Source: Bacillota bacterium (GTDB lineage Bacteria > Bacillota > Clostridia > Peptostreptococcales > Anaerovoracaceae). Taken from it: DNA of 64,000 bases. The position numbers and the translations under genes were made by a program. The notes beneath the pieces are model-generated. The model was not told where the DNA came from. It was given only the letters and a program-made list of their open reading frames with translations, and did no database searches. The stretch spans positions 12,031 to 76,030 of the forward strand of contig JAFRXM010000024.1 of assembly GCA_017443515.1 (NCBI GenBank), given 5' to 3'. Positions 13,701 through 22,784 of the stretch are shown here, one piece after another (position 1 is the first letter of the stretch; each line of letters starts with the position of its first letter).

Positions 13701-13973
13701 TTACTCCTTAAGAGCGGCGAGTCTTTTGGCAAGTTCGTTCTGCATCTCGATAGCATCACAGATGCCTTTGTACATGATCTTGCCTGCTTCGGTCGGGACT
13801 ATGCCGCGTTTTCCACGGGTGAAGAACACGGTATCGAATTCTTCCTCAAGATCGCTGAGCATCCTGGACACTACCGATCTTGAGACATACAGTTTTTCTG
13901 CGGCAGCAGCAATGTTTCCTGCCTCGTAGCAGTACTTGTAGTATAATCCTTGCTTTTCTGTCATGATGTCCAC
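13701..13973 (-). CDS. stand-alone LysR-type HTH domain protein (90 aa)
   Basis: Has a LysR N-terminal HTH (GNIAAAAEKLYVSRSVVSRMLSDLEEEF...FTRGKRGIVPTEAG). It stops where the effector domain would begin. Confidence 0.6.
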   Translation of the reverse strand: MDIMTEKQGLYYKYCYEAGNIAAAAEKLYVSRSVVSRMLSDLEEEFDTVFFTRGKRGIVPTEAGKIMYKGICDAIEMQNELAKRLAALKE

Positions 13974-14097: not shown

Positions 14098-14129
14098 CAC
14101 AAAAAAGCCCCAGCTTCTGAAGCCGGGAC
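14098..14129 (-). terminator. intrinsic terminator after nrdD
   Basis: On the minus strand, CCCGGCTTC-AGA-AGCTGGGG is followed by CTTTTTTGTGG. Confidence 0.6.
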
Positions 14130-14170
14130 TGTTTTTGCTGCTTTGTATCAGGGATCTCCTTCAGGGATCG

Positions 14171-17038
14171 TTATCTGTTGTTAAGGACGTATTCCTTGAT
14201 CTTGCTTACGCCTATGTACTTGCTGACGTTCTCGCCTTCGATGATGACGGCTGTGGGCGCCTGCATTATTCCGAAGCTTCTTGCCAGAGCGCGGTTCTCC
14301 TCTGCGAGGACGAGCTCGTACTCGGTGCCCTGCTGGGCCAGGAATTCCTTGATGATGGCGCAGTTGGGGCAGGTGCGCGTGGTGAAGAGCAGGAAACGCT
14401 TTGCAGGAACTTCTGCAACGGGTTCCTCGGCAACAGGTTCTTCTGCTACCGGCTCCTCGGTTACTGGCTCTTCTGCGAGCTCTTCCCTGGCTGCCTGAAG
14501 CTCTTCTTCTACAGCCTTGGCCTGATCCGCTTCTTCGTACTGCTTAGCCAGCGCTTCGGCGTCGACCTTCTCAAACCTGTGTGTTTGTGCGGGCACTTCC
14601 TGTACCGGCGCTTCTTCTGCGGGCTCTTCGTAAGCCTTAGCGAGCTCTTCAGTCTTAACTTCGTATGCCTTTGCGAGGTCCTCGGCGTTTGCGTAGATCT
14701 TCTCTACCGCCTTGGGAGTGGGTGTTGCTGCTACTGCTGCGACAGGAGCTTCTGCTTCCTGGACCGCTTCGTAAGCTTCCTCGACTGCCGCCGCAGCTGC
14801 TGCTACGATCTCGGGAGCAACTTTTGCCTCGAAGCTCGCCTTGGGGCCAAGAGCGCCGTCCGGCTCACAGATATTGATCTTTGCTGCCGGCGCTTCCGCC
14901 GCAGGAGCTTCTGCCTCGACCTTGGTGAGGGGCTCTTCTATGTGAAGGTTGCTGTGTCTTCTGAAGGAGGTGCCTATGTCGTAGGTCTTCCTCTGCTTGA
15001 ATTCCTGGGCTTTTCCGTCGTTCCAGTTCTGCACCGGGCGATAGTAGCCTGTGATGCGGCTGTAGATCTCGGTCTTCTCACCGCACTCCGGGCAGACGCC
15101 TACTTCGCCAGCGATATACCCGTGGTTCTTGCAGACGGAATACGTGGGCGATATGGTGTAATACGGCAGCCTGTAGTTTTCAGCTATGGTGCGCACCAGT
15201 GTGGCCGCGGCCTTCCAGTCGGGCAGTTTCTCACCCAGGAAGGCGTGGAATACGGTGCCGCTGGTGTAGAGGGTCTGCAGCTCGTCCTGAACGTCCAGAG
15301 CCGCGAAAACGTCCTCGGTGTAGCCTACCGGCAGGTGGCTGCTGTTGGTGTAGTACGGTGTGCCGCCGCAGTCCGCCGCGGTGATGATGTTGCCGAAGCG
15401 CTTCACATCGTGCTTTGCGAGGCGGAAAGCGGTAGATTCAGCCGGGGTAGCCTCCAGGTTGAACAGGTCGCCGTACTGCTCCTGATAGTCGGAGAGGCGC
15501 TCTCTCATGTGGTTGAGCACTTCGATGGCGAACTGCTGAGTCTCCTTGTGGGTCATGTCCTTCTTGAGCCACTTGGCGTTGAGGCCTACTTCGTTCATGC
15601 CGACGAGGCCTATGGTGGAGAAGTGGTTCGCGAAGGTGCCCAGGTACCTCTTGGTGTAGGGATAGAGGCCTTCCGCGAGCAGCTGGCTTATTACCCTGCG
15701 CTTGATGTCAAGAGATCTTGCTGCGATGTCCATCATGTGGTCCAGGCGCTTGTAGAACTCTGCCGGAGTTTCGGAGAGGTAAGCTATGCGCGGCATGTTG
15801 ATGGTGACAACGCCGATGGATCCGGTGGACTCGCCGCTTCCAAAGAAGCCGCCGCTCTTCTTTCTGAGCTCTCTGAGGTCCAGACGGAGCCTGCAGCACA
15901 TGGAACGCACGTCGGAGGGCTCCATGTCGGAGTTGATGTAGTTGGAGAAGTACGGAGTGCCGTACTTGGCGGTCATCTCGAAGAGAAGCTTGTTGTTCTC
16001 CGTCTCGGACCAGTCGAAGTCCTTGGTAATGGAGTAAGTGGGGATAGGATACTGGAAGCCGCGGCCGTTGCAGTCGCCCTCGATCATGAGCTCGATGAAG
16101 GCCTTGTTGACCATGTCCATTTCCTTCTTGCAGTCGCCGTAGGTGAAATCCATCTCCTTGCCGCCGACTATCGCCTTCTGATCCTTAAGATCGGCAGGAA
16201 CTGTCCAGTCCAGGGTTATATTGGTGAAGGGAGCCTGGGTGCCCCAGCGCGACGGAGTGTTGACGCCGTACACGAAGCTCTGGACGCACTGCTTGACTTC
16301 TTTATATGTTAAGTTGTCGGCCTTTACGAAGGGGGCCAGATATGTATCAAAGGAGCTGAAAGCCTGCGCGCCTGCCCACTCGTTCTGCATGATACCGAGG
16401 AAGTTCACCATCTGGTTGCAGAGGGTGGAAAGGTGGCTTGCCGGGGAAGAGCTGATCTTGCCGGGAACTCCGCCAAGGCCTTCCTGGATGAGCTGCCTGA
16501 GGCTCCAGCCTGCGCAGTAGCCTGTAAGCATGGAAAGGTCGTGGAGGTGGATGTCCGCATTCTTGTGAGCCCTGGCGATCTCGTCATCGTAGATCTCGGA
16601 GAGCCAGTAGTTGGCGGTGATGGCGCCGGAGTTGGAGAGGATGAGTCCGCCGACGGAGTAAGTTACGGTGGAGTTCTCCTTGACGCGCCAGTCGGACACC
16701 TTGAGGTAGCTGTCCACCAGGGACTTGTAGTCCAGAGTGGTGGTGTTGATGTTTCTCAGCTTTTCTCTCTGGCGCCTGTAGAGGATGTAGGCCTTGGCCA
16801 CGTCGTCGTAACCGGCCTTGATGAGCGTGGATTCCACGCAGTCCTGGATGTCCTCGACTGTGATGAGGTTGTCCTTGATCTTCGGCTCGAATTCCGAAGT
16901 TACTTTCAGCGCGAGGAGGTCTATCACCTGCGGGTGATACTGCTTCTCCTGCGCTTCGAACGCCATTTTAATAGCGTTTGAGATCTTTGTGAGATCGAAA
17001 TCTACGACCTTACCGTCTCTCTTCTGTACCTGATACAT
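14171..17038 (-). CDS. nrdD: anaerobic ribonucleoside-triphosphate reductase fused to a C-terminal glutaredoxin-like domain
   Basis: ATP-cone MYQVQKRDGKVVDFDLTKI. C-terminal Zn/glycyl-radical region CPECGEKTEIYSRITGYYRPV. Then a roughly 190-aa Ala/Glu/Pro linker (14402-14971) and a CxxC thioredoxin-fold domain (FTTRTCPNCAIIKEFL, 14174-14401). The AGGAG RBS supports the ATG at 17038. Confidence 0.9.
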   Translation of the reverse strand: MYQVQKRDGKVVDFDLTKISNAIKMAFEAQEKQYHPQVIDLLALKVTSEFEPKIKDNLITVEDIQDCVESTLIKAGYDDVAKAYILYRRQREKLRNINTTTLDYKSLVDSYLKVSDWRVKENSTVTYSVGGLILSNSGAITANYWLSEIYDDEIARAHKNADIHLHDLSMLTGYCAGWSLRQLIQEGLGGVPGKISSSPASHLSTLCNQMVNFLGIMQNEWAGAQAFSSFDTYLAPFVKADNLTYKEVKQCVQSFVYGVNTPSRWGTQAPFTNITLDWTVPADLKDQKAIVGGKEMDFTYGDCKKEMDMVNKAFIELMIEGDCNGRGFQYPIPTYSITKDFDWSETENNKLLFEMTAKYGTPYFSNYINSDMEPSDVRSMCCRLRLDLRELRKKSGGFFGSGESTGSIGVVTINMPRIAYLSETPAEFYKRLDHMMDIAARSLDIKRRVISQLLAEGLYPYTKRYLGTFANHFSTIGLVGMNEVGLNAKWLKKDMTHKETQQFAIEVLNHMRERLSDYQEQYGDLFNLEATPAESTAFRLAKHDVKRFGNIITAADCGGTPYYTNSSHLPVGYTEDVFAALDVQDELQTLYTSGTVFHAFLGEKLPDWKAAATLVRTIAENYRLPYYTISPTYSVCKNHGYIAGEVGVCPECGEKTEIYSRITGYYRPVQNWNDGKAQEFKQRKTYDIGTSFRRHSNLHIEEPLTKVEAEAPAAEAPAAKINICEPDGALGPKASFEAKVAPEIVAAAAAAVEEAYEAVQEAEAPVAAVAATPTPKAVEKIYANAEDLAKAYEVKTEELAKAYEEPAEEAPVQEVPAQTHRFEKVDAEALAKQYEEADQAKAVEEELQAAREELAEEPVTEEPVAEEPVAEEPVAEVPAKRFLLFTTRTCPNCAIIKEFLAQQGTEYELVLAEENRALARSFGIMQAPTAVIIEGENVSKYIGVSKIKEYVLNNR

Positions 17039-17104
17039 TGCTTTGCTCCTTATATGTAAAATTTTATGATTAGACATAAAAATAGACCAAAATCGGTTAT
17101 TTCT

Positions 17105-17133
17105 ATAATAAAATAATATCTTGTGCTTGTCAA
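17105..17133 (-). promoter_or_regulatory. nrdD promoter
   Basis: On the minus strand: TTGACA (17133-17128), a 17-nt spacer, then TATTAT (17110-17105). Confidence 0.5.
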
Positions 17134-17157
17134 TATAGAAAGCACAAGATATTGTGT
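17111..17157. promoter_or_regulatory. two NrdR boxes
   Basis: GCACAAGATATTGTGT (17142-17157) matches 14 of 16 positions of the acaCwAtATaTwGtgt consensus. AAATAATATCTTGTGC (17111-17126) matches 12 of 16. The centres are 31 bp apart, and the proximal box fills the promoter spacer. Confidence 0.6.
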
Positions 17158-17217: not shown

Positions 17218-18159
17218 TCAGGCCAGGAAGCCCTCTACTATGGCAGCCTCGGCTTCTTCCTGGGTGAGCCCCAGGGTGCGCAGCTTCATGATCTGCTCGC
17301 CTGCGATCTTGCCTATGGCGGCCTCGTGGATAAGCTCCGCGTCGCCGCTGTTGGCGTAGAGCTCCGGAGTTGCGTCGACCTTGCCGTTGTCGGCTATTAT
17401 CGCGTCGCACTCGGAATGGCCGTGGCACTTGTTATTGCCTATGATAACGGACTGGTATGCCTGGTGCGAATTGCCCCTGGCCACGGAACGGCTCATCAGG
17501 TTGACGCCGGAGTCCTCGCCGTTGAGCTCCACGGAGAAGTGGGTCTCGGCAGTCTCCTCTTTGTCAGTAAGGAGCCTTTCCTTTATGACAAGCGTGGCGC
17601 GGGCCTTAAGCTCCGCCTTTGTGTTGCGCACTGACTTCGTGACGCCGCCGAGCTGGGAGGTATCCATCTCCAGGTAGGAATCCTCGTCCAGGAAGCATTC
17701 GGTGACCGGGTCTATGATCTTCTGGGTATCGTCCGAGCCGGTGCCGACGTGCTTTTCCTCGTAGAGCACGCGGCTGCCCTTCGCAAGAAGGAAGCGGTGT
17801 ATGCCGTTGTGGCGCGCCGGTTCCCCGGTCTCCGTGTGGATGCCGCAGCCAGCGACTATCACTACGTCCGCGCCTTCTCCGACGTGGAAATCGTTGTATA
17901 CGAGGTCGTCAAAACCCGGCGCAGTTACGCAGGCCGGGATGAAGACGGTCTCCCCTTTGGTGCCGGGGGCTATGAATATATCCAGGCCGGGATTGTCCGT
18001 CTTGCTTTCTATTTTTATGTTGTCCGAGGACTTTCTGCCCAGGCATCCGCCGTTGCTGCGGATGTTGAACGCTCCGGCGAACTTGCCCTCAAAATCCGCG
18101 ACCGTCTTAAGGAGCTCCGCGGTGTTCTTGTCTATGGTCTTTTCTGCTATGTCGCTCAT
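17218..18159 (-). CDS. SufB/SufD-family Fe-S assembly protein
   Basis: 313 aa and paired with a SufC-like ATPase. The C-terminal AAIGKIAGEQIMKLRTLGLTQEEAE is typical of SufBD proteins. Confidence 0.65.
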   Translation of the reverse strand: MSDIAEKTIDKNTAELLKTVADFEGKFAGAFNIRSNGGCLGRKSSDNIKIESKTDNPGLDIFIAPGTKGETVFIPACVTAPGFDDLVYNDFHVGEGADVVIVAGCGIHTETGEPARHNGIHRFLLAKGSRVLYEEKHVGTGSDDTQKIIDPVTECFLDEDSYLEMDTSQLGGVTKSVRNTKAELKARATLVIKERLLTDKEETAETHFSVELNGEDSGVNLMSRSVARGNSHQAYQSVIIGNNKCHGHSECDAIIADNGKVDATPELYANSGDAELIHEAAIGKIAGEQIMKLRTLGLTQEEAEAAIVEGFLA

Positions 18160-18163
18160 ATCC

Positions 18164-18883
18164 TTACCCCCTTATGCAGCTTCCGCGGTCGTCACAGTCG
18201 TTCTTGCAGATGAGCCTGGGGAAGATGGTGCTCCTGTTGCCGGAAAGCCCTACCTTGCCGCCCTGTATCATGACGATCTCGTCCGCTATGGAAAGGATGC
18301 GCTCCTGGTGGGAAATGACTATGAGGGAGCAGTCGCGCCTGTCGCGGATCTCCTCGAAGACCCTGATGAGGTTGTTGAAGCTCCAGAGGTCTATGCCTGC
18401 CTCCGGCTCGTCGAACACTGCCACGCGCGCCTTGCGCAGAAGGACGGAGGCTATCTCTATCCTCTTGATCTCGCCGCCGGAGAGCTTGGTGTCGACCTGG
18501 CGGTCTATGTACTGCTCCGGCTGCACGCCGACGTTGCGCAGGACTTCGTCGAGCTCCGCGTCCGTAAGATTTCTGCCTGCCGAGAGGTTAAGCAGCTTGC
18601 GCACCGAGATACCTTTAAAACGCACTGGCTGCTGGAATGCGAAAGCAATGCCGGCCTTTGCCCTTTCTGTGGGGTCCAGGTCTGTTATATCCCGGCCGTC
18701 CAGTATGAGCTGCCCTTCGGTGGGAACGTTGATGCCGGCTATGACCTTGGCCAGCGAAGTCTTTCCGCCGCCGTTGGGGCCGGTGAGGACTATGAGTTTG
18801 CCGTCGGGGATGGTGAGGCTGATGTCATCCAGTATCTTGCGGGTCCCCTCCGGATCGAATGTGATGTTTTTGATTTCTAGCAT
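18164..18883 (-). CDS. SufC-like ABC ATPase
   Basis: Walker A GPNGGGKTS, signature LSGGEIKR, Walker B AVFDEPEAGID. Confidence 0.75.
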   Translation of the reverse strand: MLEIKNITFDPEGTRKILDDISLTIPDGKLIVLTGPNGGGKTSLAKVIAGINVPTEGQLILDGRDITDLDPTERAKAGIAFAFQQPVRFKGISVRKLLNLSAGRNLTDAELDEVLRNVGVQPEQYIDRQVDTKLSGGEIKRIEIASVLLRKARVAVFDEPEAGIDLWSFNNLIRVFEEIRDRRDCSLIVISHQERILSIADEIVMIQGGKVGLSGNRSTIFPRLICKNDCDDRGSCIRG

Positions 18884-22061: not shown

Positions 22062-22784
22062 ATGAAAATTGCAGGAATACAGAAATTAACGCTTTTAGAC
22101 TTCCCGGGGCGCTGCGCCGCGACTATATTCACACCAGGATGCAATCTGCGCTGTCCGTTCTGCCACAACGCTTCGCTGGTAGACCCCAGCTACGTTCAGC
22201 AGACCATAGAGCACAACGAGCTCATAGAGCCTGAAGAGGTCCTGGAGTTCTTAAAGGAACGATTCGGAAGGCTCACAGGCCTTGCCGTAACAGGAGGAGA
22301 GCCCCTGATGCAGCCCGGTATCATGGAGTTCCTGCAAAAAGTAAAGGAGCTTGGCTACGCCGTAAAGCTCGACACCAACGGCACCAACCCCGAAAGGCTG
22401 CGCGCTCTGCTGTCTGCGGGCATAGTGGATTACGTCGCCATGGACTTTAAAAACTGCCGCGAAAAGTACGCTCTTACCACCGGGATCTCCGAAAGCTCCG
22501 CGGCCATACTCTACGAAAGCACCCTGCTGTCGGCTGATTTCATCAAAAAAAGTGGCGTGGAATATGAATTCCGCACCACTGTTGTAAAGCAGTTCCACAC
22601 CGTGGACGATATACGCGCCATAGCCAGGGCTCTGGCCGGCGTTCCGAAGTATTTCCTGCAGTGTTTCGAGGATTCCGGCGACATTCTCGGCGGCGAGTAC
22701 GCTGCCTGCAGCAAGGAAACGATGCACGAGATGCTGGCAGCCGCCCGGGAGTTCGTCCCGAACGCGCAGCTAAGAGGCATGTAA
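22062..22784 (+). CDS. nrdG: anaerobic ribonucleotide reductase activating protein
   Basis: MKIAGIQKLTLLDFPGRCAATIFTPGCNLRCPFCHN carries a radical-SAM CxxxCxxC. Also GLAVTGGEPL. Confidence 0.85.
   Translation: MKIAGIQKLTLLDFPGRCAATIFTPGCNLRCPFCHNASLVDPSYVQQTIEHNELIEPEEVLEFLKERFGRLTGLAVTGGEPLMQPGIMEFLQKVKELGYAVKLDTNGTNPERLRALLSAGIVDYVAMDFKNCREKYALTTGISESSAAILYESTLLSADFIKKSGVEYEFRTTVVKQFHTVDDIRAIARALAGVPKYFLQCFEDSGDILGGEYAACSKETMHEMLAAAREFVPNAQLRGM

Follow-up and report, generated by a model that had tools for sequence, protein, structure and literature searches.

Does a class III ribonucleotide reductase (RNR) that carries a redox domain on its own polypeptide also draw its electrons from that domain? 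The question is raised by the nrdD gene in a 64,000-nucleotide stretch of a rumen-type Bacillota bacterium of the class Clostridia, family Anaerovoracaceae (GenBank assembly GCA_017443515.1, contig JAFRXM010000024.1, positions 12,031 to 76,030 of the forward strand), which is referred to below as the window and is numbered from its first letter. The open reading frame (ORF) at 14171..17077 on the reverse strand comprises 968 open codons without interruption and encodes, in this order, an ATP-cone, the class III RNR core (NrdD), a 189-residue linker and a 77-residue thioredoxin-fold domain. Judged from its residues and its relatives, the fused domain is probably a tethered disulfide reductant of an NrdD of the MCCR/Glu type, and would be recycled by an NADPH-type thioredoxin reductase (TrxB). 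The fusion itself is common in gut anaerobes, the long tether is specific to the genus, and what is particular to the window is modest.

Architecture of the fusion protein

Translation most likely begins with the ATG at 17038, which gives a protein of 955 amino acids, because it follows an AAGGAG 7 nt upstream, fits the placement of the promoter and yields the MYQV with which database homologues also begin. The ATG that precedes it, at 17077, lacks a ribosome-binding site (RBS) and lies downstream of the promoter. Residue numbers refer to the 955-residue protein unless the 968-residue numbering is indicated, and the coordinates of all features are collected in Table 1.

The core is identified by its match to the NrdD catalytic domain PF13597 (632 bits against a cut-off of 26.2), and also by TIGR02487 (520 against 326) and by NCBIfam NF006126 (1139 against 548). 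The last of these matches stops at residue 701 (968-residue numbering), in ...KTYDIG, and the ORF then continues for 267 further residues. Thermotoga maritima NrdD (4coi) aligns with residues 164-703 (E 8e-41), and its C-terminus brings into register the glycyl-radical motif and the zinc ribbon that characterize NrdD proteins; by analogy with the T4 and T. maritima enzymes, the cysteines and histidine of the ribbon would bind a metal. The genome also encodes an NrdG (TIGR02495), the activase of class III RNRs.

The C-terminal domain was modelled with AlphaFold2 (AF2) from an 80-sequence alignment, at a predicted local distance difference test (pLDDT) score of 96.8, as a beta-alpha-beta-alpha-beta-beta-alpha thioredoxin fold with strands at domain positions 2-8, 30-33, 51-56 and 59-64 and helices at 13-24, 38-44 and 65-75. 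With this fold, a cis-proline loop and a CxxC motif where helix 1 begins, it falls within the superfamily of thioredoxin-fold dithiol oxidoreductases. Foldseek retrieved thioredoxins and thioredoxin-fold proteins with a probability of 1.0 and a TM score of about 0.75, and a profile search of the PDB sequences returned the thioredoxin of Methanocaldococcus jannaschii first (1fo5, E 1e-8), followed by protein disulfide oxidoreductase units, thioredoxins and NrdH. The initial annotation had described a glutaredoxin-like CxxC domain, of which the CxxC motif and the fold stand and the family does not. Glutaredoxin identity was rejected, as the domain scores just below the Pfam cut-off (PF00462, 21.9 against 22.9 bits), its motif is CPNC and not CPYC, and no match to GshF was found in the genome, where gshA and gshB were not searched for. 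NrdH-redoxin identity was likewise rejected (TIGR02194, 17.6 against 85.75 bits; CPNC instead of CVQC), and even the best NCBIfam match, YruB (TIGR02196), is far under its cut-off at 24.9 against 88.6 bits. Because all these scores fall under the Pfam and NCBIfam family thresholds, 'thioredoxin-fold redoxin' is the safer name, and the nearest proteins are small archaeal thioredoxins of the Mj0307 type.

The covalent NrdD-linker-redoxin fusion proposed at the outset is genuine: its frame is uninterrupted, its congeners carry the same parts in frame, and the redoxin is under purifying selection. In an alignment of 71 fusion proteins, the window protein included, the 70 relatives match the latter with a mean identity of 84% over the core, 53% over the redoxin and 18% over the linker.

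Active site and sources of electrons

The core of the window protein has the double-cysteine finger loop, the beta-A 'bottom-face' cysteine (Cys175) and a glutamate (Glu529) at the position of T. maritima Glu495, which are the marks of the thiol-dependent 'NrdD2' type. Position 495 of the T. maritima enzyme is the proposed proton-donor Glu of thiol-dependent class III RNRs (PMC9669993). The formate-type 'NrdD1' pattern, a single-cysteine MGCR loop and no Glu, does not describe the window protein, which has MCCR and Glu529; nor does the 'thioredoxin-only' pattern, a finger loop without Met, as Met380 is present and invariant. According to the alignment, the core thus contains every member of the residue set that has been proposed for the thioredoxin-dependent class III enzymes, plus the formate-type Met. 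An active-site Met and an extra cysteine had been put forward initially as alternatives that would tell the two types of enzyme apart; the extra cysteine is indeed there, with MCCR lying on the SCCR of T. maritima alongside the beta-A Cys and the Glu, but the test is not an either/or, since both are present. MCCR occurs in 83% of double-cysteine class III RNRs, and the MCCR + Glu group has been described as ambiguous between formate and thioredoxin, having components for either reductant (Burnim et al. 2022, PMC9669993).

If the redoxin serves this active site, a disulfide would form after each turnover between Cys175 and one of the finger-loop cysteines (381 or 382). The tethered CPNC redoxin would then swing in, reduce the disulfide in its own or in the partner subunit, and swing out to be re-reduced, most likely by the NADPH-dependent TrxB encoded 37 kb away. 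Electrons would flow from the reductase through the redoxin to the core, and turnover would be independent of formate. The recurrence of the NrdD-redoxin fusion across species counts as Rosetta-stone evidence for such a role. Support also comes from two experimental systems, as a fused glutaredoxin domain is a working and efficient RNR reductant in the NrdB of Facklamia ignava (PMC6187632), and thioredoxin reduces the NrdD of Neisseria bacilliformis (Wei 2014, as cited in PMC9669993, PMC4493059).

The source genome (1.94 Mb in 73 contigs, 91% complete) has NrdD as its sole RNR, with one PF13597 match and no match to PF02867 (class I/II). It encodes one canonical thioredoxin and, in the window, its only full thioredoxin reductase, which has the motifs CATCDG and NADPH-type HRRDSLRA and whose gene adjoins one of the glutathione-peroxidase family; the window TrxB is a candidate recycler of the fused redoxin. 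No true pyruvate formate-lyase (PFL) was found in the genome, where the best TIGR01255 match scores 131 bits and the cut-off is 994. The genome contains 17 genes for PFL-like glycyl-radical enzymes of about 800-830 amino acids, nine of them on contig C66 and the others on C48, C40, C34, C28, C70 and C67.

Elsewhere, 11 of 72 other loci have a TrxB-like gene downstream of the fusion on the same strand; it lies within 350 nt except in L074, where the distance is about 1.2 kb (the others are L029, L032, L033, L034, L040, L046, L056, L069, L092 and L096). The encoded proteins are 34-44% identical to the window TrxB, and the seven caught by a motif scan have CAVCDG and no HRRxxxR, pointing to a dedicated reductase, perhaps one that does not depend on NADPH. 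A dedicated reductase beside the gene was rejected as a general rule, as it holds in these 11 loci and not in the window. In 17 of 66 loci, nrdG lies directly upstream of the fusion.

Several points weigh against a tethered reductant. The Met behind the formate chemistry of Escherichia coli NrdD is retained in the finger loop, and formate may still be used (PMC9669993). Neither trxB nor nrdG is adjacent to the fusion gene in the window, which makes the partner a guess. The long tether lowers the local concentration of the redoxin compared to linkers of 20-25 residues, and this weakens the initial argument that fusion hard-wires the redox partner here. Furthermore, a genome completeness of 91% leaves room for a missed PFL or a second RNR, and outside the redoxin the AF2 model is only moderate (mean pLDDT 68 for the full-length protein, below 50 in the finger loop).

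The strongest competing explanation, unlikely but still a serious one, is that formate remains the turnover reductant via Met380 and Cys175, and that the redoxin is an accessory which might hold the cysteines of the zinc ribbon or the active site in their reduced form following oxidative stress, or might rescue a disulfide-trapped enzyme. Rumen habitats contain formate, and in the source genome the length of the tether and the position of trxB give no hint of tight coupling. The conservation of the Met, invariant in 71/71 proteins, keeps this explanation alive, and it agrees with the view that MCCR enzymes have components for either reductant (Burnim et al., PMC9669993). It is opposed by the equally invariant Glu proton donor, which is thought to be needed only for formate-independent chemistry, by the lack of a true PFL in the genome and by the dedicated TrxB-like gene that follows the fusion in the 11 loci. 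The distribution of the fusion also speaks against it: in the sampled sequences the redoxin is restricted to MCCR + Glu, and hence double-cysteine, cores. Other genera of the same family have either MGCR-type NrdDs, which are unfused, or unfused MCCR + Glu NrdDs with nrdG directly downstream.

The linker and the distribution of the fusion

The linker (residues 690-879) consists of 25% Ala, 22% Glu, 9.5% Val and 9% Pro, with a net charge of -29 and an isoelectric point of 4.3. The acidic, repetitive stretch of about 190 residues, the AKAYE repeats and the (EEPVA)n array of the initial annotation are all present where it had placed them. The motifs read AEDLAKAYE, TEELAKAYE and AEALAKQYE, and Tandem Repeats Finder (TRF) detects a period of 15 at 14415-14460 and one of 30 at 14410-14476. 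A Pfam scan of the linker gave no significant known domain. In the full-length AF2 model, the redoxin domain scores about 90 and the linker below 50 outside three helices. Linkers with one to three copies of the motif AE[DE]LAKAYE are found in six species of the genus, counting that of the window. In place of AE[DE]LAKxYE, a second sub-lineage of the genus conserves GEF[FY]YRV...EVxYTxDV, followed by FAEFDALMASVSD, an island that may fold as a small element or act in binding. This second linker type, seen in loci L105, L108, L110 and L111 of congeneric species, also has Tyr-rich repeats, ETPVYEAP and a unit of about 32 residues, EPEVRVDVTEPQVEVKVPEYTYEEPKVEVAVS. On the model and the alignment, most of the linker is predicted to be disordered, an acidic tether shaped by its repeats in which a few islands are conserved.

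Sixteen of 19 other species of the genus, mostly represented by incomplete metagenome-assembled genomes, share the architecture of the window protein, with linkers of 44-322 residues and repeat units EEPVA, EEPAPA, ETPVYEAP and the unit of about 32 residues. The closest comparison is offered by a syntenic contig of a second strain (L129, GCA_024712465.1), which has two substitutions in the 689-residue core (99.7% identical) and an identical redoxin (100%). Two differences set its linker apart, a 33-nt replacement or indel and a 90-nt insertion. Both are in frame, and the 90-nt difference corresponds to 10 EEPVx units compared to four in the window; the suggestion that linker length may vary is thereby borne out between strains. 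The linker would grow and shrink by slippage of its short in-frame repeats. The ratio of nonsynonymous to synonymous substitution rates (dN/dS) between the two strains is 0.008 in the core and 0 in the redoxin (five synonymous changes, none nonsynonymous), and the value of 0.19 in the linker indicates that it is not free of constraint. A frameshift hiding two separate genes, which the initial annotation had named as a possible flaw, is excluded because the frame is kept in congeners, the strain indels are in frame and dN/dS follows this pattern.

Beyond the genus, a profile scan with one genome per species, whose counts are lower bounds, showed that at least 591 species genomes encode a relative of the redoxin domain. 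Apart from those truncated at a contig end, practically all of the best 80 loci hold an NrdD fusion whose finger loop reads SMCCRLR, and the linkers are mostly 20-28 residues long; relatives typically have about 20-25 residues and a median protein length of about 791. In a class sample of 399 genomes, evenly drawn from 219 genera, the domain was present in 78 genomes (about 20%) and 50 genera at a cut-off of E <= 1e-12, almost always in open frames of 785-870 residues; the 1000-residue open frame of the window is the longest in the sample. Cultured carriers include Anaerocolumna jejuensis DSM 15929, Roseburia lenta, Waltera hominis and Blautia species. The proposed check for the same fusion in relatives therefore had a double outcome, as the fusion proved to be wide in Clostridia and is not special to this locus, where only the linker of about 190 residues is unusual. 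In a tree of the core domain, proteins with long linkers group together as a clade within the short-linker fusions, so the expansion is derived; most likely, the linker of about 190 residues is a fast-evolving, genus-specific expansion of the usual tether of about 20-25 residues.

An arrangement in which nrdD and the redoxin are separate genes was rejected. No free-standing copy of the domain was found among the short frames fetched from the class sample, which are contig-end truncations (G312, G388) or a 5'-truncated fused copy (G342), and the unfused MCCR + Glu NrdDs of related genera have nrdG downstream and no redoxin gene. The G342 copy (L144, 2058-3284) is a second fusion copy of 408 residues that starts in the finger-loop region, lies 16 kb from an intact copy of 794 residues and is probably a duplication remnant. 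Several genomes of the same order also hold small free-standing redoxin-like ORFs of weak similarity with a single in-frame TGA (e.g. G037:C1:1292278-1292463 and G060:C23:13753-13923), which are consistent with selenoprotein redoxins of the Uxx-star type.

Because most relatives manage with 20-25 residues, the 189-residue tether is not needed for reach. It reads as a tolerated, slippage-driven expansion, perhaps with a docking function or a part in delivery to the partner subunit, and as a long 'swinging arm' its exact length would probably not be critical. A more elaborate proposal, which is doubtful and somewhat less credible than continued use of formate, is that the conserved amphipathic helices of the linker (AE[DE]LAKxYE; GEF[FY]YRV...EVxYTxDV with FAEFDALMASVSD) are docking or gating elements of a regulated swinging arm, and that the MCCR + Glu core accepts both reductants, formate or the tethered dithiol. 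Binding partners of the helices might be the NrdD core, thioredoxin reductase or NrdG; the helices might also pair as a coiled coil.

It is more improbable still that the long tether lets the redoxin serve other clients, such as other glycyl-radical enzymes or peroxidases, with NrdD mainly an abundant anchor. The genome has a single canonical thioredoxin for its 17 PFL-like glycyl-radical enzymes, and genus linkers of 125-322 residues exceed the reach to the protein's own active site, both of which would suit a general thioredoxin. The 20-25-residue linkers of most relatives would nevertheless confine the domain to NrdD, its conservation extends across long- and short-linker proteins alike (53% mean identity, the same invariant residues), and nothing points to other clients. 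Finally, the notion that two genes were joined by an assembly or sequencing artefact, or by a recent pseudogene-like read-through, draws on the draft state of the 73-contig genome and the proneness of low-complexity repeats to misassembly, yet it is effectively refuted and carries next to no probability, given the same frame in independent assemblies of 16 congeneric species and hundreds of other species, linker length differences from the sister strain that are all multiples of 3, the lack of a stop, or of a start codon with an RBS, between the domains, the strong purifying selection on the redoxin, and the one promoter and one terminator that flank the entire ORF.

Gene context and related systems

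The fusion gene is a single-gene unit, as it has its own promoter and a terminator 40 nt after the stop codon. The inverted repeat at the promoter looks like a pair of NrdR boxes and is a putative operator of that kind. Directly upstream of nrdD, on the same strand, lie SufBD-like and SufC-like (ABC ATPase) genes at 17218-18883; Fe-S assembly genes thereby adjoin a gene whose activase needs a 4Fe-4S cluster, and this placement may be coincidental. Just downstream, a 90-residue ORF at 13701-13973 holds only a LysR helix-turn-helix. It is kept in the syntenic contig of the second strain (L129, 4481-4750, 89 residues, PF00126) and seems to be a short gene that has been retained, not one recently truncated.

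Table 1. Features of the fusion gene, its flanks and its candidate partner genes in the window
Feature	Residues	Position	Strand	Evidence and remarks
nrdD::redoxin coding sequence	955 and stop	14171..17038	-	RBS AAGGAG at 17046-17051; identical to database protein P0002
ATP-cone (allosteric activity site)	3-92	16763..17032	-	PF03477, E 7e-24; 16-105 in 968-residue numbering
NRDD catalytic domain	121-686	14981..16678	-	PF13597, E 1e-189; 134-699 in 968-residue numbering
Beta-A 'bottom-face' cysteine	Cys175	16514..16516	-	aligned to T. maritima Cys125 (Y-C175 on Y124-C125); invariant 71/71
Finger-loop motif MCCR	Met380 Cys381 Cys382 Arg383	15890..15901	-	S-M-C-C-R aligned to T. maritima SCCR 328-331; invariant 71/71
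Glutamate	Glu529	15452..15454	-	column of T. maritima Glu495; invariant 71/71
Zinc-ribbon ligands CxxH...CxxC	Cys636, His639, Cys649, Cys652	15083..15133	-	all four invariant 71/71
Glycyl-radical motif RITGYYRP	Gly664	15035..15058	-	aligned to T. maritima glycyl-radical loop; invariant 71/71
Acidic Ala/Glu/Val/Pro linker, 189 residues	690-878	14405..14971	-	composition, AF2, conservation, dN/dS
Predicted linker helix 1 (EIVAAAAAAVEEAYEAVQEA)	743-762	14753..14812	-	DSSP on AF2 model, low confidence; related AVEEAFEAVQAAEKAY segment in congeners
Predicted linker helix 2, two AE[DE]LAKAYE motifs	785-802	14633..14686	-	AF2 model
Predicted linker helix 3 (AEALAKQYEEADQAKAVEEELQAAREEL)	827-854	14477..14560	-	AF2 pLDDT 64-75; third AE[DE]LAKAYE-type motif
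Tandem 15-nt repeats, (EEPV[TA])x4		14414..14473	-	TRF
Thioredoxin-fold redoxin domain, 77 residues	879-955	14174..14404	-	AF2 pLDDT 96.8; Foldseek; PDB profile search
Redox motif CPNC	Cys890-Pro-Asn-Cys893	14360..14371	-	C, P and C invariant; N in 70/71
Cis-proline loop APT	Ala927-Pro928-Thr929	14252..14260	-	invariant 71/71; aligned to VPT of 1fo5
Sigma-70-type promoter TTGACA-17-TATTAT		17105..17133	-	11/12 consensus positions matched
Perfect 13-bp inverted repeat AATATCTTGTGCT / AGCACAAGATATT		17115..17153	-	straddles the -35 box of the nrdD promoter
Intrinsic terminator		14106..14130	-	11-bp stem, T-run
nrdG, radical-SAM activase of class III RNR		22062..22784	+	TIGR02495 NrdG2, 196 bits against 131; unlinked, 5 kb away
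trxB, only full thioredoxin reductase of the genome		53969..54898	-	TIGR01292, 353.6 bits against 343.45, sole match above cut-off

The nearest characterized enzymes are the NrdDs of N. bacilliformis and T. maritima (4coi, 4u3e), with which the window protein has in common the double-cysteine finger loop, the beta-A Cys and the Glu (T. maritima E495). Both use a protein dithiol (PMC4493059, PMC9669993), and the same would apply to the window protein. They differ in having SCCR without Met and a free-standing thioredoxin, whereas the window protein has MCCR and a covalent redoxin, falls under a different NCBIfam model (NF006126) and begins with an ATP-cone. The Grx::ATP-cone::NrdB of F. ignava is likewise an RNR component fused to a redoxin (PMC6187632). 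There, however, the RNR is of class I and the fusion is N-terminal, on the radical-generating subunit, with a glutathione-dependent domain of the GrxC type; the window protein is of class III, with a C-terminal fusion on the catalytic subunit, a CPNC domain below the glutaredoxin threshold and no GshF detected.

A member of the fusion family seems to have been recorded once. Rozman Grinberg et al. 2018 (PMC6187632, Table S1) list a single Grx:NrdD case in RefSeq, of subclass NrdDd, in Lachnospiraceae bacterium TWA4 (WP_082039398.1), which probably belongs to the same family as the window fusion. That only one NrdD fusion is listed there, compared to the at least 591 species with redoxin-domain relatives found here, is probably due to the redoxin scoring just under the Pfam threshold. 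No paper on an anaerobic RNR fused at its C-terminus to a thioredoxin-like domain came up in a full-text literature search, and RefSeq and UniProt name the fusion proteins only 'ribonucleoside triphosphate reductase'. Short-linker members such as those of Anaerocolumna jejuensis (WP_073277239.1) and Roseburia (WP_118280758.1) have the same architecture and invariant residues as the window protein, with 80-86% identity in the core and 45-56% in the redoxin. They are distinguished by their short linkers and, in the 11 of 72 fetched loci, mostly from other Clostridia families, by the downstream TrxB-like gene, of which the window has none.

Among free-standing proteins, thioredoxins of the Mj0307 type (1fo5), NrdH-redoxins and YruB-type proteins resemble the window redoxin in their length of about 75-85 residues, their CxxC on helix 1 and their cis-proline loop. 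They differ in motif, which is CPHC in 1fo5 and CVQC in NrdH (and CPYC in glutaredoxins) as opposed to CPNC, and the window domain scores far below the family cut-offs; furthermore, a domain of the window type was not found free-standing in the fetched frames. A different kind of parallel is provided by the lipoyl domains of the E2 component of 2-oxo-acid dehydrogenases, which are borne on Ala/Pro/charged 'swinging-arm' linkers and carry their group to two active sites. As in the window protein, a low-complexity Ala/Pro/Glu tether holds a small carrier domain. The proteins are unrelated and the likeness is one of analogy only, as the window linker is longer, more acidic and furnished with helical AE[DE]LAKxYE motifs, and the carried group is different.

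To conclude, the fusion family is widespread, visible in databases and barely published, and it is under-counted in both databases and the literature. The redoxin is fused to MCCR + Glu enzymes in hundreds of Clostridia species and never to MGCR enzymes in the samples, which is strong comparative evidence for thiol-based reduction; the family bears directly on what reduces MCCR-type class III RNRs. For this question the fusion offers a self-contained construct, consisting of one polypeptide, TrxB and NADPH. In addition, the linkers of 44-322 residues that the genus places on one conserved enzyme form a natural tether-length series, from which the influence of tether length on electron delivery within a molecule could be read.

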